The notes beneath the pieces were generated by a model. The model searched no databases and had not been told where the DNA came from. It was given only the letters and a program-made list of their open reading frames with translations. A stretch of 64,000 nt of DNA from sequence record ON528732; one strand, given 5' to 3'. The DNA comes from Shigella phage ESh22. This document shows positions 1 to 55,803 of this stretch, one piece after another (positions within the stretch are counted from its first letter, which is position 1; each line of letters begins with the position of its first letter). The translations under genes and the position numbers were made by a program.

Positions 1-20
1 TTCATAGGAATCTCCTAATT

Positions 21-98
21 TGGTGTTCCAAGACGGATTCGAACCGTCACTAATACAAGGTTTGAGCTTGCATCCTCTGCCAATTGGGATACTGGAAC
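21..98 (-). tRNA. tRNA, isotype undetermined (anticodon loop reads CAA but D-arm is atypical)
   Basis: Minus-strand T-arm GACGG-TTCGAAT-CCGTC, 7-bp acceptor pairing (GTTCCAG/TTGGAAC), encoded CCA. Confidence 0.6.
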
Positions 99-99
99 T

Positions 100-174
100 T
101 GGTACTCGCTGAAGGACTTGAACCTTCTTCACCAACTTGTAAGGATGGGGCTTTACCATATAAACTAAGCGAGC
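100..174 (-). tRNA. tRNA-Val (anticodon UAC)
   Basis: T-arm GGTTCAAGTCC, acceptor GCTCGCT/AGCGAGT, CCA encoded, loop CTTACAA. Confidence 0.7.
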
Positions 175-268
175 TTTAAAGAGGTCTGAAGTTGTGCCGC
201 TAACTCAACTCCGTGGAATTTGTTACGGTCTTCAGTTGACTCAAGCGGTCTTTCACTTGACCTCAAAT

Positions 269-345
269 TGGTGCTGCTCACAGGACTTGAACCCGCATCT
301 CCATCCTTACAAGGGATGTGTAATAGCCAATTATACGAAAGCAGC
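269..345 (-). tRNA. tRNA-Thr (anticodon UGU)
   Basis: T-arm GGTTCAAGTCC, acceptor GCTGCTT/GAGCAGC, CCA encoded, anticodon stem CATCC/GGATG with loop CTTGTAA. Confidence 0.7.
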
Positions 346-351
346 ATTATT

Positions 352-426
352 TGGAGCATCCAGAGGGAATCGAACCCTCAACCTCAGTTTGGAAGACTGT
401 AATTTTCCCGTTTAAACTATGGATGC
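352..426 (-). tRNA. tRNA-Gly (anticodon UCC)
   Basis: T-arm GGTTCGATTCC, acceptor GCATCCA/TGGATGC, CCA encoded, loop CTTCCAA. Confidence 0.7.
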
Positions 427-432
427 ACTAAT

Positions 433-508
433 TGGTGGAGAAGCAGGGAATTGAACCCTGTACTTAAGTTTGCAAAACTTATGTTTTAACCATGTAAACT
501 ACATCCCC
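433..508 (-). tRNA. tRNA-Ala (anticodon UGC)
   Basis: T-arm GGTTCAATTCC, acceptor GGGGATG/CTTCTCC (one mismatch), CCA encoded, anticodon stem TAAGT/ACTTA with loop TTTGCAA. Confidence 0.65.
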
Positions 509-514
509 GATATT

Positions 515-590
515 TGGTACAGGTGGAGGGAATTGAACCCATCATCTTACTGATTAAGAGTCAGCCGCATAACCATTTTGCTACACCTGC
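515..590 (-). tRNA. tRNA-Lys (anticodon CUU)
   Basis: T-arm GGTTCAATTCC, acceptor GCAGGTG/CACCTGT, CCA encoded, loop CTCTTAA. Confidence 0.7.
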
Positions 591-597
591 ACTAATT

Positions 598-675
598 TGG
601 TGGGAGACAAGGGATTCGAACCCTCAAACACCAACTTCTAAGGATGGTAGGTTTACCAATTACCGTCAATCTCCC
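598..675 (-). tRNA. tRNA, isotype undetermined (loop reads UAG but D-arm is atypical)
   Basis: T-arm GGTTCGAATCC, acceptor GGGAGAT/GTCTCCC, CCA encoded. Confidence 0.6.
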
Positions 676-922
676 ATTAAATCTTTGTAGAGAGCTTCCA
701 AGACTCCAAAGCAACAATGGTATATTATGCCTTGAAAACTCTCTAAAAAGACCTAAACAGTCTTTATATAGTCTTATTCAATCCGGTGACTAGAACCTTT
801 GGAGAGCTTGATACTATCTCTTCTCCGTGACACCTACTAGGTGCTTTATAGTCGTGCCGTGTACGCCAATACACGAGTAAAAACCGAGCTTGTTCGACGA
901 GCGCGGGAATTAAATCTTATTA

Positions 923-1009
923 GGCGGTAAGTAAAGGAGTCGAACCCTCACCGTATCTCTACAGTGGCAACTGTTTTCAAGACAGTTTGGCTACCATTAG
1001 CCGCTACCT
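923..1009 (-). tRNA. Type-II tRNA-like gene, Ser(UGA)-like anticodon arm, weak acceptor pairing; possibly degenerate
   Basis: T-arm GAGGG-TTCGACT-CCTTT, anticodon stem ACTGT/ACAGT with loop CTTGAAA, long variable region, no encoded CCA, only about 5 bp acceptor pairing. Confidence 0.4.
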
Positions 1010-1025
1010 ACCCCTAATGAGACTT

Positions 1026-1108
1026 TGGCATGGGACGGAGGAATCGAACCCCTTTGAGTAAGTTTTGGAGGCTTACGCACATGCCTTAGTGTCTTAACAT
1101 CGTCCCAT
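1026..1108 (-). tRNA. tRNA, 83 nt with extended D region; anticodon uncertain (possibly CCA/Trp)
   Basis: T-arm GGTTCGATTCC, perfect acceptor ATGGGAC/GTCCCAT, CCA encoded. Confidence 0.5.
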
Positions 1109-1268
1109 ACTATAATTCGAAGCTTACCGTATTATCACAACACTGTCAAGCCCCTTCTCAGATTATTTACATGTTCTGGAAAACATGAGATACAGACCAC
1201 CTCCTTATGAGATTGACTCTTTCAAGTCAATGCGGAGACCCATAAAGGTCGTCGTAGTAATCTGCTAA

Positions 1269-1616
1269 CTAATATTTTGCATGTCTTATTCTGTGGCAAT
1301 TTGCACAAAGTAACACACATTTATCAAGTTCATCCTTCAACTCTTTAGAGAATTTTAGGCTTTTCCTTCTACCAATACTAAAATCTTTTTCTGAAGGATT
1401 TAAATGATGAAAGTCATACACTGCCGGATGATACCTTTTACCACAATCGTAACATACACCACCTTTATACTCTATTGCGAGTATCTTTAAGTTTCTCTGT
1501 CTTTCGATTGTTTGCTCATTGACACACTGTTTACAGTATGAATGAGTCATCTTACCATCTTTCATGTAGAAATCATTATCATCCTTGTTCAGTTTACACT
1601 TTATACAAGTTCTCAT
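1269..1616 (-). CDS. HNH homing endonuclease embedded in the tRNA array
   Basis: 115 aa ORF; Cys-rich N-terminus (CxxC, CxxC) and C-terminal HNH-like motif YDFHHLNP...CVLLCANCHRIRH. Confidence 0.6.
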   Translation of the reverse strand: MRTCIKCKLNKDDNDFYMKDGKMTHSYCKQCVNEQTIERQRNLKILAIEYKGGVCYDCGKRYHPAVYDFHHLNPSEKDFSIGRRKSLKFSKELKDELDKCVLLCANCHRIRHAKY

Positions 1617-1631
1617 GATTTCATCCTAAAT

Positions 1632-1707
1632 TGGCACTCCGTATAGGACTCGAACCTATATATGAACTGTTTAGAAGACAGTTGCCTATCCTTTAGACTA
1701 ACGGAGC
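1632..1707 (-). tRNA. tRNA-Arg (anticodon UCU)
   Basis: T-arm GGTTCGAGTCC, acceptor GCTCCGT/ACGGAGT, CCA encoded, anticodon stem ACTGT/ACAGT with loop CTTCTAA. Confidence 0.7.
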
Positions 1708-1984
1708 ATTAACATTTTAAAGAGCACTCATTGCATTTAAGCCAAGCCCCATAAGGGATGCTCTTTAGAATGTTGCCCACTTTATTAATCATACCGTGGG
1801 CTAGTACGCCAAATTCTTTAACAGGGAGTTGGAATACCCTGCTGGTGTTTAGCCTATTAAGCTACTGCCAGAAAAACATTATCGTTTGCATTTATTTTTA
1901 AGTTTTTAAAATAGACGCTACGCTAACGAAAACTAAGGTTATCTTAAAGTGGTCACATCTGAAATGTCAACAACTTTATGAAAT

Positions 1985-2059
1985 TGGTTGTAGGTGAGGG
2001 TATCGAACCCTCTTCTAACGGTTATCAGCCGTTTGCATTACCATTTATGCTAACCCACA
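1985..2059 (-). tRNA. tRNA-Ile (anticodon GAU)
   Basis: T-arm GGTTCGATACC, acceptor TGTGGGT/ACCTACA, CCA encoded, anticodon stem AACGG/CCGTT with loop CTGATAA. Confidence 0.65.
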
Positions 2060-2061
2060 AT

Positions 2062-2138
2062 TGGAGGTTCAGGTGGGAATCGAACCCACATTCATAGGGC
2101 TTATGAGACCCTTGCATTACCTTATCTGCGACTGAACC
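2062..2138 (-). tRNA. tRNA-Met (anticodon CAU; could be elongator Met or Ile2)
   Basis: T-arm GGTTCGATTCC, acceptor GGTTCAG/CTGAACC, CCA encoded, loop CTCATAA. Confidence 0.65.
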
Positions 2139-2142
2139 ATTT

Positions 2143-2218
2143 TGGTAGAAGTGGAGGGATTCGAACCCATCGCCTGTCAGATTAAAAGTCTGCCGCATCA
2201 CCATTCTGCTACACTTCC
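2143..2218 (-). tRNA. tRNA-Lys (anticodon UUU)
   Basis: T-arm GGTTCGAATCC, acceptor GGAAGTG/CACTTCT, CCA encoded, loop CTTTTAA. Confidence 0.7.
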
Positions 2219-2639
2219 ATTAAATCATCTTTGCAGTAACCTACGCAAACCTTGCTAAAGGGTTTGTAGAGTTATCTCTTAGTAAGCTAATCTAGAATCA
2301 TGCTCAAGAGATTCATCGGCACTCATGGGACGATATATTAGCTCCATAAGTCACTGCAAAGAGGATTACCAGACCGTATCATCTTAAGTGCTACCATTAC
2401 ACCAACACGCCGTAACGTGTGAAGGAATCGAACCTTCTCCCTTTCTTTTATAGAGAATTAGATTGTTTAAATTGCTGTAAACGGTCTTCTGTAAATTTGT
2501 TGGAACCAGACCAAGTTTTAAATTTTTCAAATTAATTGGCTTGAAATATTTTTGTTGCTTGCTGAATTTGGTCTTCTGCTCCTTTAAAGAATACTCACAA
2601 GAACTCTTTAAGGGAGGGGCTAAAAAGCCCTCTCAAATT

Positions 2640-2717
2640 TGGCGGTTACGAAGGGATTCGAACCCTCATCATCCTCCGTGACAGGGAGGTATTTTAACCA
2701 GATTAAACTACATAACC
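2640..2717 (-). tRNA. tRNA-Asp (anticodon GUC)
   Basis: T-arm GGTTCGAATCC, acceptor GGTTATG/CGTAACC, CCA encoded, anticodon stem CCTCC/GGAGG with loop CTGTCAC. Confidence 0.75.
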
Positions 2718-2723
2718 TTTATT

Positions 2724-2811
2724 TGGTGCGCCGTGAAGGAGTCGAACCTACCGAGTCGTAATGACAAGCGATTTACAGTCGCCACCGCTTCCATCTACGG
2801 GATAACGACGC
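2724..2811 (-). tRNA. tRNA-Tyr (anticodon GUA), type II
   Basis: 88 nt with long variable arm, T-arm GGTTCGACTCC, acceptor GCGTCGT/ACGGCGC, CCA encoded, loop CTGTAAA. Confidence 0.7.
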
Positions 2812-2821
2812 ATTTAAATTT

Positions 2822-2898
2822 TGGCGGTTAGTCAGGGATTCGAACCCTGTGCCATTCGGTTAACAGCCGACCGCACATGCCTTATGTGCTTCCTAACC
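2822..2898 (-). tRNA. tRNA-Asn (anticodon GUU)
   Basis: T-arm GGTTCGAATCC, acceptor GGTTAGG/ACTAACC, CCA encoded, loop CTGTTAA. Confidence 0.65.
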
Positions 2899-2981
2899 GT
2901 GTTTAACATTACCAGACCGTATTCATTTTAATTTTCCGATAAAATTGTTTTTAAATTGCTGTAAACGGTCTTCTGTAAATT

Positions 2982-3058
2982 TGGAGGCGGGTGTTGGAGT
3001 CGAACCAACCGTTACCATGCTAATGAGACATGTGAGACGCCCTTTCTCTATACCCGCG
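2982..3058 (-). tRNA. tRNA with CAU anticodon (Met, fMet or Ile2); 1-72 mismatch
   Basis: T-arm GGTTCGACTCC, acceptor CGCGGGT/ACCCGCC with unpaired position 1, CCA encoded, loop CTCATTA. Confidence 0.55.
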
Positions 3059-3143
3059 ATTCTTAATGACCAGACCAAGCTTTTTATGTTTTCTATGCGC
3101 GAAAAGTAAAAGTTGTTTGCTGTATTTGGTCTTCTGTCAAATT

Positions 3144-3221
3144 TGGCGTTCCAGAAGGGACTTGAACCCTCAAAACTCCACATTGAAAGTGTGGTGACTT
3201 TACCAATTTGTCTACTGGAAC
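3144..3221 (-). tRNA. tRNA-Glu (anticodon UUC)
   Basis: T-arm GGTTCAAGTCC, perfect acceptor GTTCCAG/CTGGAAC, CCA encoded, anticodon stem CCACA/TGTGG with loop CTTTCAA. Confidence 0.75.
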
Positions 3222-3227
3222 ATAATT

Positions 3228-3307
3228 TGGTCTCCGTTGAAGGATTTGAACCCTCGACCCCTTGCTCCCAAAGCAAGTGCTGCTAAACCAAACTGAGCTA
3301 AACGGAG
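3228..3307 (-). tRNA. tRNA-Pro (anticodon UGG)
   Basis: T-arm GGTTCAAATCC, acceptor CTCCGTT/AACGGAG, CCA encoded, D-arm GCTCAGTTTGG, anticodon stem CTTGC/GCAAG with loop TTTGGGA. Confidence 0.7.
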
Positions 3308-3472
3308 ATAATCTTTTTAAACTCTATGAAACCACTATAACATTATTTTTTAGTGTTTGTCAAGAGGTTTTTTAAAACATTTTGAAAATCTTTTAGAAAA
3401 ACTCTTTTTCGTTTCGATGTAGAACATCTTACAGGGTATCAACAACCTTGTCAATACCCTTTTTAAAACTTT

Positions 3473-4888
3473 TTACCAATCGTAACGTTCAGACATTACT
3501 GCTTTTAGCATTACGCTGATTGGGTCAAACTTCTCACCACCAAGTAGAGCCTTTAATGTAGCTGGAGAGAACCCTGAAACCATTGCTACTCCGTTATCAT
3601 TAATAGACACTTCGCAGTTACCACCACGATTTGCCAGATACCAGAATACCAACTGAGGCATTTCATAACCTGATTCTTCATACTTACGACGAATTGCTTC
3701 GAAGTTAGTATTACCACGCTGACCATCAACAGAGTTAAACTGCATGTCAGAGAAGATGATAAGCTTACGTGGCATTGCATCTTGAGTCAAGTTATTTCTT
3801 TTACCAATTTCAAGAATCCTGTCAAAAGCAGCTTGAAGGTTTGTTGAACCATACTCTACATGTGACATGACCTGAGCCATACGATTCTTCAGAGAGCCAC
3901 TTAGAGTGATAAAGAATGGATTTGTGGAGTAAACCATTAACTCATCTTTAAAACACCCTGTATTGCGTTCTGCGACGTATAACGCCAAAGATACACCAAT
4001 ATCAAGAGCGTCTACAGAACCGTGACGTTCACACGTCATAGAGCCTGATACGTCAGTCATGCAAAGAATGTTTTCACCACCCTTCATCCAGTTTGGCAGT
4101 GCTTTCCATTGCTCATTAGCCACTTCACTACGACCGTACTTCACAGCTTTGGTGATATCATATGGGTAAACAGCACCAGCGTTAATCTTGGTAGTACCCT
4201 CTGTCAGAGCTTTTACATACTCTGCATAACGTTCTCCACCTTTTCGTGTGAACAATTTCTGATAACGTGCAGCAGCCAGTGAAGGAAGCTTGCTGTAATC
4301 AATCTCACCAAACTCATTTGCAGAAATCTTTTGCTCTACGGTATCTGACAGTGCTGATAACATCAGACGATACTCTTTCTGGCTTAGATTTGCAAACTTG
4401 CAGAAACGCTTTACAAAATTCATGTGACGCTTCTTAACTCTTGGCAGCCACTTAGCAGCTAACGCTGAAGTGTTTGGGTCCAACAGTCCTTGCTCAATGT
4501 GCTTGAAAGCATCAGTCTCGTAACGAGTACCTACGAAGATTTTGAAGTCATCATAACGACCTAGTTCAGAAATCTTAGCCATGATACGCAGAACTTGGAA
4601 CTCATCAAGTATGTTGGTTCTGATAGATTCTGATAGGACAGTTCTGAATGCTTTACGTTCTCCCATACCTTCTCGTGCATCTCGCATATGAAGTAAGATT
4701 CGAACCGCTACATCGATATCTTCTCGCAGAGCTTTGTAAAACAGATTTGGTAGAGTCTCTGGGTAGTTACGGCTTGAACCAGCAGCCTTATAAAAGTCTA
4801 CCAAGGCAGACATTGAGGTCAGATGGTTAACAGCACCATTTTCAGTCAAACCAGCATGTAATTTTGCGTGGTTAAATAATTCGCTCAT
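3473..4888 (-). CDS. vWA-domain protein (MIDAS DxSGS motif) with N-terminal helical domain; DUF2828/TROVE-like architecture
   Basis: Track ORF 3473..4957; start moved to ATG at 4888 (MSELFNHAKL). C-terminal motif LCMTDVSGSM typical of vWA MIDAS. Confidence 0.5.
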   Translation of the reverse strand: MSELFNHAKLHAGLTENGAVNHLTSMSALVDFYKAAGSSRNYPETLPNLFYKALREDIDVAVRILLHMRDAREGMGERKAFRTVLSESIRTNILDEFQVLRIMAKISELGRYDDFKIFVGTRYETDAFKHIEQGLLDPNTSALAAKWLPRVKKRHMNFVKRFCKFANLSQKEYRLMLSALSDTVEQKISANEFGEIDYSKLPSLAAARYQKLFTRKGGERYAEYVKALTEGTTKINAGAVYPYDITKAVKYGRSEVANEQWKALPNWMKGGENILCMTDVSGSMTCERHGSVDALDIGVSLALYVAERNTGCFKDELMVYSTNPFFITLSGSLKNRMAQVMSHVEYGSTNLQAAFDRILEIGKRNNLTQDAMPRKLIIFSDMQFNSVDGQRGNTNFEAIRRKYEESGYEMPQLVFWYLANRGGNCEVSINDNGVAMVSGFSPATLKALLGGEKFDPISVMLKAVMSERYDW

Positions 4889-4966
4889 AATACTCTCTCT
4901 TCTCTCATTGTTGTTGATGAGACAGACTCTAAAGTAACCAATAAAGTCTGTCAACACCTTTTTAAA

Positions 4967-5338
4967 TTATTTCTTCAGAGTTGCTACAGCAGAGAACGTT
5001 GGTTTGTTGTCTTGTGGTTTCTCTCCACCCTTTTCACCACCACCTTTAACATCTGCTGCAATTGCTTTCATCTCACCTGCTGAGTGAGTCATGATAGTTT
5101 TACCAGCTTCCATCATCGACTTCAAATTGACTTCATCAGGCTTGAGTCCAAACTCTGCCAGCTTTGTAGCATCCCTTGTAACAATTGCTTCAAATAACTT
5201 TGCAGCAAACTCTGCTGAGTTGTCAATGGTTAGTTGAGCTTTTACAAGAGAACTCTTGTTACGTGAACCTTTTGGTCTCCCAGAAGGGTTACCAGATTGA
5301 CCTTTTTTAAACTGGCCTTTGTTTGTTCTTTTGGTCAT
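4967..5338 (-). CDS. hypothetical protein with GNPxGRPKG motif (DUF5681-like)
   Basis: 123 aa ORF, basic N-terminus KGQSGNPSGRPKGSRN, terminator-free operon partner of the vWA gene. Confidence 0.4.
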   Translation of the reverse strand: MTKRTNKGQFKKGQSGNPSGRPKGSRNKSSLVKAQLTIDNSAEFAAKLFEAIVTRDATKLAEFGLKPDEVNLKSMMEAGKTIMTHSAGEMKAIAADVKGGGEKGGEKPQDNKPTFSAVATLKK

Positions 5339-5589
5339 TCAACCTCCTACTATGAAGACTTCTTAAAAGGCTTTTAAGATAAGAGATAGATATCCAGAAA
5401 GATATCTGTTTAAATAGCCTTTTTAGAAGAGTCTTTTAAGTTATCTTCTAAGTGTTTTATTACACTACATCTTGTCAATCCCCTTGTCAAGTAAAATTTT
5501 TAGGTTGCAATAGTTCTTGACTTGTTGTATGGATTACTGTACCATCTTACTTAAAGCTGTAGGTCTGCTTTATCTACAAAGGAGACTAA

Positions 5590-5751
5590 ATGAGAAAACT
5601 AACAAAGAAGAAAAAGGGTAATAATACCAATCACTGTAAGGAATCAAAACGTGTGGAAGCAATCCACTATACATCCTCTGAAATTGGTTTGTACCTATAT
5701 TTTCAAAATTATAGACGACAAGAGGATTACTTATGTGTAGCTCCCAATTAG
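5590..5751 (+). CDS. small hypothetical protein (53 aa)
   Basis: ATG at 5590 preceded by AAGGAGA Shine-Dalgarno 6 nt upstream; overlaps track ORF 5733..5966. Confidence 0.3.
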   Translation: MRKLTKKKKGNNTNHCKESKRVEAIHYTSSEIGLYLYFQNYRRQEDYLCVAPN

Positions 5752-5959
5752 AAATCACAGATATTATTGATTTGTACCAAACTGCAAAGAGTCATGGGTA
5801 TATAGCTTCGATTGGTAAGAATAAGCACTATGATGCTTTAACTGGTATGTATTTCAGAGCTATCGCTCAATCTAGTGAACAAGTGTTAATGGTTTCTTCC
5901 AGTGAATTTGCTTCATTTCTCTATTGCAGCAAGATTATTAACCGCAGGAGAACAGGTAA

Positions 5960-6550
5960 ATGTTAAACGTGAGTTTTAATTACAACGGTGATGGTTCTGT
6001 ATCAATTACTTCACCGTATTCTGATGACCTTCTAAAAGAATTGGTCAATCAGTGTGAAAGAGGTATGCACTATGTTCCAAGCTCATTTAAGCAGAAGACT
6101 ATTGCAAACAACCTTATGCGTGTGACTGTACAATCCAGAAATCCAGACTACACAATTGATGGTGAAAGCCCATATTCATTAATGGCTCTTGGTGCTAATA
6201 GTGAATTTAAGCTTGTATGTCACGATTCAGAGACATTCTTCAAAGTGTTCTCTAACCTCATCCATAACTCAAAGTATAGTTATGTATCTGGCTCAACATC
6301 ATTCTATCCAGCAAACTACACATGTAATCTTATTGATAATATGAGAGAGCGTGAAAGCATTGCTACAGAGATTTCTTTTGATGTGAACACTTCACCAGAA
6401 TCAACCCCAAGTAATGACTTTGATATGTCGTATGCTTTATCTCTGAGTAAGAAATCTGATTTCATTGATTACGTCAATGGGTTTGGATTTAAGTTGGACG
6501 AGACAATGAATCTCAAAAAACTTAAAAATATGCTTAAGACGATGGCTTAA
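5960..6550 (+). CDS. hypothetical protein
   Basis: 196 aa ORF followed by rho-independent terminator at 6557-6578. Confidence 0.5.
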   Translation: MLNVSFNYNGDGSVSITSPYSDDLLKELVNQCERGMHYVPSSFKQKTIANNLMRVTVQSRNPDYTIDGESPYSLMALGANSEFKLVCHDSETFFKVFSNLIHNSKYSYVSGSTSFYPANYTCNLIDNMRERESIATEISFDVNTSPESTPSNDFDMSYALSLSKKSDFIDYVNGFGFKLDETMNLKKLKNMLKTMA

Positions 6551-53103: not shown

Positions 53104-55803
53104 ATGAACAATGTAGATTTTGAGAACTTACATTTGGTTGGTGATACAGAAACTGACGGGTTGCTGCTTGAGTTTACAAAAGCTCACGTTATGGCATTCG
53201 CAGATTACAAAGATGATAGTGATGAACCTGCTGTGTGGGTTTTCACTGATGAGCCTATCCTTGGTCACAAGTATACAAAATACATCAAAGGTGGTTTGCG
53301 TGAAGGTGTGGAGTTTGCATTGAAAGCCAAACGCCTTTGTATCCACAATGGTCTTGGTTATGACTGGTGGGTGTTCAACCATATTGCACCTGACCTGTGG
53401 AACTTTGATAATCCTAAGTGTAAACCTTGGAGTGACTTCTTTCAGGATTCACTTATCCAATCTCGTGTGCAGTGGATGGATAGACCTACACCAAAAGGCT
53501 ACAAGGGTGCTCATGGCTTGGCTGCATGGGGTGCTCGTGTCGGTGTTCGTAAACCAGAGATTGAAGAGTGGGGTGTGTGGAACGCTGATATTCTTAACCG
53601 TGTTGTTGAGGATATTCGAATCAACGCCAAAGCAAAACGTGCTATGGATAATGAATACCTTAAGCTTAAGAAGTGTGGTGTAGATACTTACGAAACCTAC
53701 ATGCGAGCTAAAGAGACTTCTTTCTGGATGAGTCAACAAGCTATTAATGGTTGGAAAGCTAACATTGACCTTATGAAGTCCTGTGTAGAAGAACTGGATA
53801 AGATGACTTCTGAGTTAGCCTCTGAAGTTGAACCGTTCCTACCTCCGACTATTAAGACGAAAGGTAAAGTAACTGGTGAAGAGTTTGCCAAGGCATGGAA
53901 TGAGTATGTTGAAACATTTGGTCATGTAGATGGTTTGAAACGTATCACAAAGTATCCAAAGACAAAGTATCGTGAGCAGATGCGTGAAGGGGAACTGAAG
54001 ACGTACCCTATCAAGCCATATGGGAAACCAACTACAAAGATTTTCAACATTGAGAAACGTAATTGCTACACTCCAACTAACACTGTCACTGGCGAAGAGT
54101 ACAGGGAAGGTTTTGTAGCAATGAAAGATGCTCGTGCAATCTGCAATGAGTTGAATGCTAAGGTTGGCAAGAAGTGTAAGGATTGGAAGCCAGTTAAGAC
54201 AGTTAAAACTGTGAAGTACTACAATAACCACGTAGTAAATCACTTTGAAATGGAGTCAAGCCGTTACACAGGTCTTGTTGATGCACCTTATACACCAATT
54301 GAGTTTGAAGTTTCACGTATGACTCAAGTTGCAGTGGTGAAGGAATACTTGAAATCTGTTGGCTGGATTCCTGATGATTGGAACTACAAAAAGGATTCTG
54401 ATAACCGTCCAATCAAGGTATGCCGCTTCAAAGATAATAAGAAGATGATTCGTAAACATCCTAAGTGGGATGAGATGGTTGAACGTTGTGGATTGAACTA
54501 CATTGAGCATGAAGGGGTTCATTACATTGAGTATAACTGGTCTGTTAGGAAGTACACAGATTTGCTTGAGCCTTGCTTGATTCGTACTTCACCTAAACTT
54601 ACTGAATCTTCTTATGACACCATTGAAGGTGAACTTGGACAAAAGATTGCGAAGTACTATACTTTGATGCACCGACGTAGAACTATTGAGAACTCAAAAG
54701 ATGACGAGAAAGGTTGGTTAAACCAGATTCGTCCAGATGGTCGCTTGAGTGCTGGTGCAATGGTGTTTGGTACTTCAACTGGTCGTATGACACAGTATGG
54801 TATTGTGAACGTACCTTCTGGGGCTGCTGTTTACGGGGAACCAATGAGGGCAGTCTGGATTTGTGAAGAAGGAACCAACGTAGTATCCGTTGATATGAAC
54901 TCTGCACAGCTTGTGTTACTGTGTAACTTTATGGGTGATAAAGAGTTCACCAAAGCAGTAACAGAAGGTAAGGAAGAAATTGAGTTTATTCGTCAAGAAG
55001 ATGGTCGCTATTACTGCAAACACTTCGACGAATACCTTAACCCAGAAGTTGACAAGTATCTGCGTTATGACTCTGAAAACGACTTGTACGTAGTCTATTC
55101 AGGCACTGATGCTCACACACTGAACAGTATTTACTTCAGCTTGAATGATGAGCAGGATATCTTGACTTGTCGTATGACTCAGGATGAGAATCTTCTCCAT
55201 GAGATTAGTAAGGGTCGTAAGAAAGCTAAGAACGGTATCTATGCACTGCTGTTCGGTGCGGGTGATGAGAAGTTTGCTAAGACCATCAAAGCTTCAACTA
55301 CTCAAGAAGGTGCATTGACTAAGCAGACTTACTTTGTTCGTTTGCCGAAGATTAAGAAACTGATTGATAACTTAGAAGCTGACTTTAAAGCAACTAAGAA
55401 AGCTCTTGAAGAGGTCTTTGGTAAAACTGCTGCAATTGCTAAAGGTGGATTTGTTCAGGTTGCTGGGGCGTGGTTGTGGTGTAAATCTCCACACAAACTC
55501 TTGAACTATCTGTTGATGGGTTCAGAAGCACAAGTTCAGAATGAAGCAATCAACCTTGCTTGTCGTCGTATGATTGATGAAGGTTTGATGAAACTAAATG
55601 GTCGTAAGCCAGCTATCGGTGCTCGTTTACTTTGTGCTTACCACGACGAAACAAGCTGGGAATGTCCAGAAAGCATGACAGCAGAAGTTAAGGCAGTAAC
55701 TGACTGGTATTATGGTCAAGCTTCTAAAAACTTGGGACTGAAGAAGGATACTTTGGTAACGGGTACTGGTAAGGTTGGTAAATCGTGGCTTGAAGTCCAC
55801 TAA
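53104..55803 (+). CDS. DNA polymerase, family A, with 3'-5' exonuclease domain
   Basis: 899 aa; Exo I VGDTETDG, motif B KKAKNGIYALLFGAG, motif C CAYHDETSWE. Confidence 0.85.
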   Translation: MNNVDFENLHLVGDTETDGLLLEFTKAHVMAFADYKDDSDEPAVWVFTDEPILGHKYTKYIKGGLREGVEFALKAKRLCIHNGLGYDWWVFNHIAPDLWNFDNPKCKPWSDFFQDSLIQSRVQWMDRPTPKGYKGAHGLAAWGARVGVRKPEIEEWGVWNADILNRVVEDIRINAKAKRAMDNEYLKLKKCGVDTYETYMRAKETSFWMSQQAINGWKANIDLMKSCVEELDKMTSELASEVEPFLPPTIKTKGKVTGEEFAKAWNEYVETFGHVDGLKRITKYPKTKYREQMREGELKTYPIKPYGKPTTKIFNIEKRNCYTPTNTVTGEEYREGFVAMKDARAICNELNAKVGKKCKDWKPVKTVKTVKYYNNHVVNHFEMESSRYTGLVDAPYTPIEFEVSRMTQVAVVKEYLKSVGWIPDDWNYKKDSDNRPIKVCRFKDNKKMIRKHPKWDEMVERCGLNYIEHEGVHYIEYNWSVRKYTDLLEPCLIRTSPKLTESSYDTIEGELGQKIAKYYTLMHRRRTIENSKDDEKGWLNQIRPDGRLSAGAMVFGTSTGRMTQYGIVNVPSGAAVYGEPMRAVWICEEGTNVVSVDMNSAQLVLLCNFMGDKEFTKAVTEGKEEIEFIRQEDGRYYCKHFDEYLNPEVDKYLRYDSENDLYVVYSGTDAHTLNSIYFSLNDEQDILTCRMTQDENLLHEISKGRKKAKNGIYALLFGAGDEKFAKTIKASTTQEGALTKQTYFVRLPKIKKLIDNLEADFKATKKALEEVFGKTAAIAKGGFVQVAGAWLWCKSPHKLLNYLLMGSEAQVQNEAINLACRRMIDEGLMKLNGRKPAIGARLLCAYHDETSWECPESMTAEVKAVTDWYYGQASKNLGLKKDTLVTGTGKVGKSWLEVH

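Follow-up and report, generated by a model that had tools for sequence, protein, structure and literature searches.

We examined a 64,000-nucleotide stretch of DNA from Shigella phage ESh22 (sequence record ON528732), referred to here as the window. Near the start of the window, the minus strand encodes a 471-amino acid Ro60-like protein, and downstream of this gene lies a tRNA array in which four Y-like RNAs are embedded (Table 1). The gene and these RNAs probably constitute a ribonucleoprotein (RNP) system of the Ro60/Y-RNA type, in which a known protein would bind, and function with, a new variant of Y RNA. Particles of Ro60 and Y RNA are familiar from animals and a few bacteria, and their role in phages has barely been explored.

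The original prediction, made from the sequence of the window, had placed the gene at the edge of a tRNA array. This was borne out by ARAGORN, which located 18 tRNAs on the strand of the gene, the nearest of them (tRNA-Pro, 3228–3307) 165 nucleotides (nt) from the stop codon of the gene. Bases 1–6000 of the window have matches in 299 phage records at 80–99% identity. Because nearly all of these are Ounavirinae (FelixO1, Moogle, Sf16, Bas63, and relatives), the region is assigned by sequence comparison to the tRNA-array end of a FelixO1-type myovirus genome (Ounavirinae, FelixO1/Moogle-like). Shigella phage ESh21 is near-identical (99.7% at the DNA level over 2340–2600 and 99.6% at the protein level).

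Table 1. Positions of the Ro60-like gene, the Y-like RNAs, and associated features in the window.
Feature	Position	Strand	Details and evidence
Gene for 471-amino acid Ro60-like protein (DUF2828 helical + DUF7788 vWA)	3473..4888	-	ATG start at 4888; ortholog of Bas63 gp130 and FelixO1 ORF42
N-terminal all-helical (HEAT/TROVE-like) domain	4094..4888	-	Residues ~1–265
C-terminal vWA domain	3476..4081	-	Residues ~270–471
MIDAS DxSxS motif	4040..4054	-	D279-V-S-G-S283; translation
Short Y-like RNA 1	3069..3135	-	Stem AGACCAA/UUGGUCU, CAGCAA, A/U-rich loop; tRNA-Glu/tRNA-Met gap; R2 32.8 bits, E 2.4e-5 over 6 kb
Short Y-like RNA 2	2911..2974	-	Stem AGACCGU/ACGGUCU, CAGCAA; tRNA-Met/tRNA-Asn gap; R2 41.2 bits, E 3.6e-7; R1 44.6 bits
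Short Y-like RNA 3	2505..2577	-	Stem AGACCAA/UUGGUCU, CAGCAA; immediately 5' of long form; R2 37.8 bits, E 1.9e-6; fold z = -2.1
Long Y-like RNA	2368..2490	-	117-nt core 2371–2487; after short form 3; R1 138.9 bits, R2 95.8 bits; descriptor scan
Long form, terminal stem	2487–2481 with 2377–2371	-	AGACCGU with ACGGUCU
Long form, CAGCAA motif	2477–2472	-	
Long form, anticodon/variable-like hairpin	~2456–2442	-	
Long form, T arm	2437–2421	-	GAAGG-UUCGAUU-CCUUC, perfect
Long form, closed acceptor-like hairpin	2420–2405	-	ACACGU-UACG-GCGUGU, 4-nt loop
Long form, D arm	2402–2388	-	GUGU-AAUGGUA-GCAC
Array of 18 tRNA genes with embedded Y-like RNAs	21..3307	-	ARAGORN; Rfam tRNA matches
Sigma-70-like promoter site, between gene and first tRNA	3454–3426	-	TTGACA-17-TAAGAT; consensus scan, 10/12; pattern match only
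Sigma-70-like promoter site, between gene and first tRNA	3363–3334	-	TTGACA-18-TATAGT with TG; consensus scan, 11/12; pattern match only
Sigma-70-like promoter site, upstream of gene	4926..4954	-	TTGACA-17-TAGAGT; consensus scan, 10/12; pattern match only

Predicted structure and relationships of the protein

A purine-rich ribosome-binding site occurs upstream of the gene. A longer version starting at a GTG codon (4957) was rejected: in the longer open reading frame (ORF), residue 24 is the first to be covered by the PHROG match, and homologs do not use this start. The N-terminal part of the protein matches Pfam DUF2828 (1.9e-25, 90 bits, cut-off 29) and the C-terminal part DUF7788 (1.4e-43, 149 bits, cut-off 27.1), while PHROG 850 ('RNA-binding protein') is matched end to end (E 1.2e-171, profile positions 1–476 of 476). 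The protein matches no NCBIfam family. By tblastn, homologs occur in 709 phage records, 95 of them from mycobacteriophages; the sampled mycobacteriophage homologs are annotated 'Ro-like RNA binding protein' or 'RNA-binding protein'.

The AlphaFold2 model of the protein (pLDDT 89.9, pTM 0.89) is helical at residues ~28–263 and has an alpha/beta vWA fold at residues 274–464, in agreement with the proposal of a helical N-terminal domain followed by a vWA domain with an intact MIDAS. All five MIDAS residues (D279, S281, and S283 in DVSGSM, T349, and D381) are invariant among 45 homologs of 42–84% identity. Invariant arginines and lysines are abundant in the helical domain in the same alignment (R40, R69, R72, R78, R111, K146, R150, and R208). 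In the predicted model, a single chain forms a HEAT-repeat (TROVE-like) ring, which the C-terminal vWA domain closes. The best 11 matches in a Foldseek search of the PDB are all Ro60/TROVE proteins (E 3e-8 to 3.5e-6), aligned along the whole chain over 494–575 columns; generic vWA domains appear only at E > 2e-3.

The TROVE/Ro60 architecture that had been proposed thus holds for the modeled fold and fails for the sequence profile. DUF2828 and DUF7788 are matched by 45/45 family members, and Pfam PF25045 (vWA_Ro60) weakly by 11/45 (best E 4.7e-4), with no match to the window protein itself. As modeled, the protein is Ro60-like by predicted structure, not by sequence profile. We take it to be a phage homolog of the Ro60/Rsr ring proteins, belonging to a divergent DUF2828/DUF7788 branch that is common in phages, and expect it to bind RNA. 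Ro60/Rsr proteins hold Y RNA on the outside of the ring and take up single-stranded RNA ends in the hole at its center.

The Ro60-like nature of the protein was already known from annotation, from the PHROG label, and from work on phage Bas63 (Escherichia phage JohannRWettstein). Bas63 gp130 (bas63_0130) is 79% identical to the window protein over all 471 residues without gaps, and its gene is likewise flanked by a DUF5681 gene and tRNA-Pro. In a 2024 PhageMaP preprint, gp130 was independently called structurally Ro60-like, which agrees with the original suggestion of a possible Ro60-like system, and Bas63 lacking gp130 was found to be crippled on a host carrying the Ppl defense gene, which encodes an ATPase and a PHP domain (PMC11482910). 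The window protein is therefore an ortholog of an anti-Ppl protein, the phenotype itself being known for Bas63 gp130 only.

Four Y-like RNAs in the tRNA array

Four gaps between tRNAs contain a repeated unit on the minus strand, 5'-AGAAGACC(G/A)(U/A)(U/A)U(A/U)CAGCAA ... (A/U)(C/U)GGUCUGGU-3', the repeated 5' segment of which is covered by repeat families D7, D8, and D11. The units share a common build, in which the 5' and 3' ends form a 7-base pair (bp) terminal stem that is followed on the 5' side by a near-invariant U-N-CAGCAA. All four RNAs are on the strand of the gene; downstream of its stop codon, the first of them starts after 338 nt and the last extends to 1105 nt. The three short forms are ~65 nt in length and all lack a tRNA-like module. 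Short form 1 has the same position in FelixO1 and Sf16 and falls in repeat families D7/D8.

The long form, as read from its sequence, carries a circularly permuted tRNA mimic, with the T arm, closed acceptor-like hairpin, and D arm in the layout of YrlA RNAs. We considered whether this form is a junction of two tRNAs and rejected this, because no CCA is present and the segment 3' of the T arm is base-paired with the one that precedes the D arm. In FelixO1 and Bas63 the acceptor-like hairpin has another sequence (ACUCGGC-AGAU-GUCGAGU) with the pairing kept. The long element occurs in 247 Ounavirinae records at 82–92% conservation, in which it is mostly unannotated or lies under small 'hypothetical protein' calls on the opposite strand.

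Covariance searches support the idea that structured, partly tRNA-like RNAs of the partner type are encoded near the gene, four in all and one of them a tRNA mimic. The locations first suggested for them were wrong. The noncoding stretches named as candidates (175–268, 676–920, and 1708–1984) score no more than 7–17 bits with covariance model R2 (described below), with the better scores coming from adjoining tRNAs. These stretches are structured, as had been stated, and fold better than shuffled sequences (z = -3.35 for 175–268, -2.97 for 676–922, and -2.70 for 1708–1945). Run without filters, R2 gives four clear matches in the window, those of Table 1; weaker matches of 17–26 bits at 2017–2141, 297–430, 553–678, and 1605–1731 were set aside as dimeric-tRNA artefacts. 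The rest of the window (58 kb outside the region) contains no R2 match at E <= 0.05; a descriptor match at 54109–54210 on the plus strand lies inside an 899-amino acid ORF (53104–55803), has no R2 match, and was treated as chance.

Two strong promoter-like sites lie ahead of the array and the Y-like RNAs. Short forms 1 and 2 nearly fill their inter-tRNA gaps, and since the spacers are only 7–12 nt, the enzymes that trim the flanking tRNAs could release them.

The authors of the Bas63 study guessed that some 'tRNA genes' near gp130 might be Y RNAs (PMC11482910). That study named no RNA, and the candidates identified here are unannotated elements between the annotated tRNAs, not the tRNAs. In the Bas63 locus (L003) the models match candidate Y-like RNAs at 3898–3970, 4065–4128, 4520–4593, and 4607–4738.

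An RNA family linked to homologous genes

We sampled 80 viral contigs encoding homologs, mostly of 37–49% identity; 75 of the loci are distant, that is, non-Felix. A hand-written descriptor (terminal stem of at least 6 bp, CAGCA-type motif, T arm, hairpin, D arm, and closing stem) gave 15 matches in 14/80 loci on the gene strand and none on the opposite strand, compared with two in three shuffles of 919 kb. Each match has a different, complementary terminal stem, with CAGCAA or a one-base variant 2–4 nt after it. When 11 diverse long forms were aligned with MAFFT (A2), the 5' and 3' strands of the stem were not matched up correctly; covariance model R1 was therefore based on five Ounavirinae copies, for which the structure was written by hand (A3). 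R1 retrieved diverse long and short forms, and R2 was rebuilt from its structure-aware matches (A5).

With both strands of 935 kb searched, R2 produced 83 matches at E <= 0.05, 83/83 of them on the gene strand, and at least one match in 45/75 distant loci. Most matches lie close to the gene, on either side (54/74 within 500 nt), and 24 loci have one within 100 nt. Predicted tRNAs are overlapped by 3/83 matches, and 79/80 of the others have a CNGCA motif. The RNA lengths fall into two classes, roughly 43–74 nt and 93–175 nt. Pair cells are 95.4% canonical, as compared to 36–43% when the partners are slid by 1–3 columns. In the model-fitted alignment of 80 distinct sequences, the terminal stem is 98% paired, with compensatory double-sided changes at 7/7 pairs, and C14, G16, C17, and A18 of CAGCAA, the G5:C416 pair, and the G just 3' of the stem are near-invariant.

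R2 matches lie beside the homolog in Enterococcus phage EFDG1 (70.6 and 48.9 bits), Klebsiella phage FBKp34 (65 bits), Aeromonas phage Aeh1 (43 bits), Listeria phage LP-048, Campylobacter phage Los1, and Staphylococcus phage BE02, the last with three tandem short forms after the stop codon. In a test of named phages, a Y-like RNA was found beside the gene in 6/6, spanning six host genera. In LP-048 (L085, 4660–11503), the Ro-like gene has three tandem Y-like matches ahead of it and a tRNA array on one side; on the other side it is followed by genes for an HD phosphohydrolase, an RtcB ligase, a 'tRNA amidotransferase', and an RNA ligase. With these RNA-repair genes, the neighborhood resembles the bacterial rsr-rtcBA and rsr-yrlBA-rtcBA operons.

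As an observation rather than a statistic, the flanks of up to 6 kb contain one or more tRNA genes in 29/75 distant loci and at least three in 24/75; these tRNAs are without exception on the gene strand. Phage T4 provides the classic stable RNAs of a tRNA cluster, rnaC and rnaD. The T4 tRNA region, which has no homologous gene, yields nothing with R2 except a dimeric-tRNA artefact (32 bits) at the tRNA-Leu/tRNA-Gly junction; rnaC scores 15.6 bits, and rnaC and rnaD were rejected as family members.

Several records have spurious ORFs over the Y-like RNAs, or oversized 'tRNA' calls that overlap them. Examples of the latter are a 114-nt tRNA-Asp in Klebsiella phage FBKp34 (L089, 7003–7116) and a 122-nt tRNA-Val in Aeromonas phage Aeh1 (L088, 9151–9272). 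An ARAGORN tRNA-Thr call in a further locus (L042, 5750–5821) also overlaps an R2 match. These three tRNA calls may be mis-called Y-like RNAs. In another locus (L012, 1187–1654), a GOLLD-RNA-like match of 117 bits (gathering score 150) occurs among tRNA genes, ~1 kb from a long Y-like RNA.

Comparison with known Ro60/Y-RNA systems

The locus resembles the bacterial Rsr systems of Salmonella and M. smegmatis (rsr-yrlBA-rtcBA; PMC4201824) in several respects. Both have a ring protein with a vWA domain and RNAs encoded within a few kb on the same strand, and both pair a long RNA whose tRNA mimic is closed by a terminal stem (YrlA) with a shorter RNA lacking the mimic (YrlB). YrlA (Rfam RF02553) consists of a T arm, an acceptor-like stem-loop, and a D arm, closed by a terminal stem (PMC4201824). 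A conserved motif just inside the 5' strand of the terminal stem is likewise shared, as is, for some phage homologs, an RtcB neighborhood. Unlike bacterial Rsr, the window protein belongs to DUF2828 by profile, not to TROVE. The phage motif is CAGCAA, not the GNCGAAN0-1G of YrlA, and the Rfam YrlA model gives 0–39 bits on the phage RNAs (24.7 bits for L017), short of its gathering score of 69. The window RNAs also differ from bacterial Yrl RNAs in being present in four copies embedded in a phage tRNA array.

A 2014 study described Y-like RNAs beside Ro60 homologs in mycobacteriophages and a small number of other phages (PMC4201824), and binding of such RNAs to a phage Ro60 was shown in 2025 for Yrl1/Yrl2 of Thermus phage phiLo (PMC12135203; PDB 9KOP, 9L5Y). 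The PDB lists the phiLo protein as a TROVE domain-containing protein; it is ~15–17% identical to the window protein, and its RNAs have CGAA motifs and lie upstream of the gene, with no tRNA array. Closer to the window protein is gp54 of mycobacteriophage MsGreen ('Ro-like RNA binding protein'), which has the same DUF2828 and DUF7788 domains and is 33% identical. An RNA with CAGCAA (L004, 5522–5653) lies 130 nt downstream of gp54 on the same strand, and scores 61.9 bits with R2 and 39.3 bits with Rfam YrlA (E 6e-6, below the gathering score). MsGreen differs in having one long GC-rich RNA and no surrounding tRNA array.

No account of these RNAs in FelixO1-type phages, or of a CAGCAA-class family, was found in Rfam 15 or in the searchable literature outside the supplementary list of the 2014 YrlA survey (PMC4201824). 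The RNA partner thus appears new.

Interpretation and alternatives

The identification of a Ro60/Y-RNA-type RNP draws on the fold similarity of the predicted model, the orthology to gp130, the structure and covariation of the RNA family, and the linkage of this family to the protein family. A number of observations weigh against it. On the protein side, the Foldseek TM-scores are only 0.41–0.63, Pfam TROVE (PF05731) is matched by 0/45 family members at E <= 10, and neither phmmer nor an hmmsearch profile search found a Ro60 among PDB sequences. On the RNA side, the Rfam YrlA and Y_RNA models have no match in the window at 1–6000 (E <= 1) or 2219–2640 (E <= 10), where these searches returned only tRNAs and chance matches, including sub-threshold ones to tmRNA_permuted (1857–2045) and Dicty_Class_I (2913–2970). 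The canonical Ro-binding motif (GNCGAAN0-1G / GGUCCGA) is replaced by CAGCAA at the equivalent position, the model-fitted alignment behind the covariation counts favors the modeled structure, and 30/75 distant loci have no RNA detectable by R2 within 6 kb. Finally, gp130 alone, supplied on a plasmid or inserted in T7 without the Bas63 RNAs, restores plaquing of T7 on the Ppl strain (PMC11482910). Because gp130 suffices there, the Y-like RNAs are not needed for the anti-Ppl phenotype, and they may instead regulate or extend the function of the protein.

The protein might accordingly act by itself, as a vWA/MIDAS protein–protein inhibitor that, for example, directly blocks the Ppl ATPase-PHP nuclease, with the stem-CAGCAA elements being irrelevant or regulatory. 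We consider this unlikely, though it is the strongest of the competing explanations: the whole chain resembles Ro60 rather than vWA proteins generally, the helical domain has many invariant arginines and lysines, and a covarying RNA family is tied to the gene by position and strand across unrelated phages. In the T7 experiment, moreover, the protein could also have bound host RNAs. The proximity of the elements to the gene raises a different explanation, namely that they act in cis, as autoregulatory operators or stabilizers within the untranslated regions of the Ro-like mRNA, and are not separate stable RNAs. Short forms abut the gene, up- or downstream, in many distant loci, including the 24 with one within 100 nt, and some tandem copies directly follow the stop codon, as in phage BE02. 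The window RNAs, by contrast, lie 340–1100 nt downstream, past the two strong promoter-like sites, and are parted from the gene and from each other by tRNA genes, which must be excised. The long forms, in addition, hold a complete tRNA-elbow mimic, like the trans-acting YrlA RNAs (PMC4201824). Cis-acting sites are therefore improbable as an account of the family.

More improbable still is that the elements are unrelated to the protein and represent spacers or processing signals of the tRNA operon, or decayed tRNA genes (dimeric-tRNA artefacts). They do sit between tRNAs, dimeric tRNAs reach 26–32 bits with the model, and the array holds a decayed tRNA-like element at ~1024–1113. Yet the RNAs flank the gene in loci without any tRNA genes (for example, L014, L019, L025, and L037), and they are absent from the T4 tRNA cluster. 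Covariation accompanies the conservation of stem and CAGCAA. In the long form, the segment that follows the T arm and the one that precedes the D arm pair with each other into a hairpin closed by a 4-nt loop, with no CCA.

If the gene and RNAs do form a Ro60/Y-RNA-type RNP, the Y-like RNAs would be co-transcribed with the tRNAs and released by the enzymes that trim the neighboring tRNAs, and the stem/CAGCAA module would be the part by which the protein binds them. In the long form, the tRNA-like elbow might recruit or decoy a host tRNA-recognizing factor, either an exoribonuclease, such as PNPase, the exoribonuclease partner in known Ro60 systems, or a defense nuclease. The RNP could serve in phage RNA surveillance or repair and in counter-defense. 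On the whole, the central idea of a Ro60-like protein with structured partner-type RNAs nearby is supported, with binding between the two as its predicted consequence.

Since an RNA lies beside the gene in ~60% of the sampled distant loci and in all six named phages, such a phage RNP may be common and overlooked. A bolder version, which we hold tentatively and put at somewhat less than even, is that DUF2828-type Ro60 homologs and uncatalogued 'CAGCAA-class' Y RNAs, in short and permuted-tRNA forms, make up a widespread phage RNP module, extending from Felixounaviruses to Herelleviridae, T4-like, Campylobacter, and mycobacterial phages, in which the mimic is a bait or adaptor for host tRNA-directed nucleases or exoribonucleases. 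Were this so, tRNA arrays, RNA repair, and counter-defense (against Ppl and perhaps other systems) would be tied into one mechanism. What is new here is a set of testable partner RNAs, missed by Rfam and by genome annotation, with coordinates, a consensus (terminal stem and U-N-CAGCAA), and a covariance model. These provide a handle on how gp130-type proteins defeat Ppl, on the frequent adjacency of the genes to phage tRNA arrays, and on the purpose of tRNA mimicry in Y RNAs.

Other features of the array and its surroundings

The gene upstream of the Ro60-like gene encodes a DUF5681 protein (4967–5338). It was rejected as a general partner of the Ro60-like protein because its conservation is confined to Ounavirinae. 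Within the tRNA array, an ORF for an HNH homing endonuclease occurs at 1269–1616 on the minus strand (PHROG 2255, 1.6e-38). HNH-type insertions in the array vary among relatives and occupy other positions; FelixO1 has three, and Bas63 has none at the 1269–1616 site.

The decayed tRNA-like element at ~1024–1113 (minus strand) is unannotated and lies just upstream of tRNA-Ser. It retains a 7-bp acceptor stem, a T arm, and an encoded CCA, and has an anticodon loop of 9 nt (CCUCCAAAA). The threshold of ARAGORN must be lowered for the element to be called, and it is then reported as an odd tRNA with a 4-base anticodon. The Thr-Val inter-tRNA gap at 175–268 (minus strand) forms a stable hairpin (-30 kcal/mol) and contains GAAGACCGU, which resembles the 5' stem strand of the Y-like RNAs. 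This stretch lacks CAGCAA and has no R2 match; it may be a decayed Y-like copy.

The 277-nt gap at 1708–1984 (minus strand) has its own promoter-like site at 1970–1941 (TTGACA-18-TAAGAT). The sub-threshold match to permuted tmRNA at 1857–2045 reaches 33.8 bits (gathering score 47), and alpha tmRNA also matches below threshold in this gap. ARAGORN found no tmRNA at 1708–1984, and the Rfam tmRNA matches there rest in part on the adjoining tRNA-Ile. Directly 3' of the long Y-like RNA, at 2219–2367 on the minus strand, is an extended hairpin of ~145 nt with 21-nt inverted arms (2223–2243 and 2347–2367). It has no Rfam match, and its minimum free energy is -50.4 kcal/mol (z -5.4), with 0/200 shuffles folding equally well.

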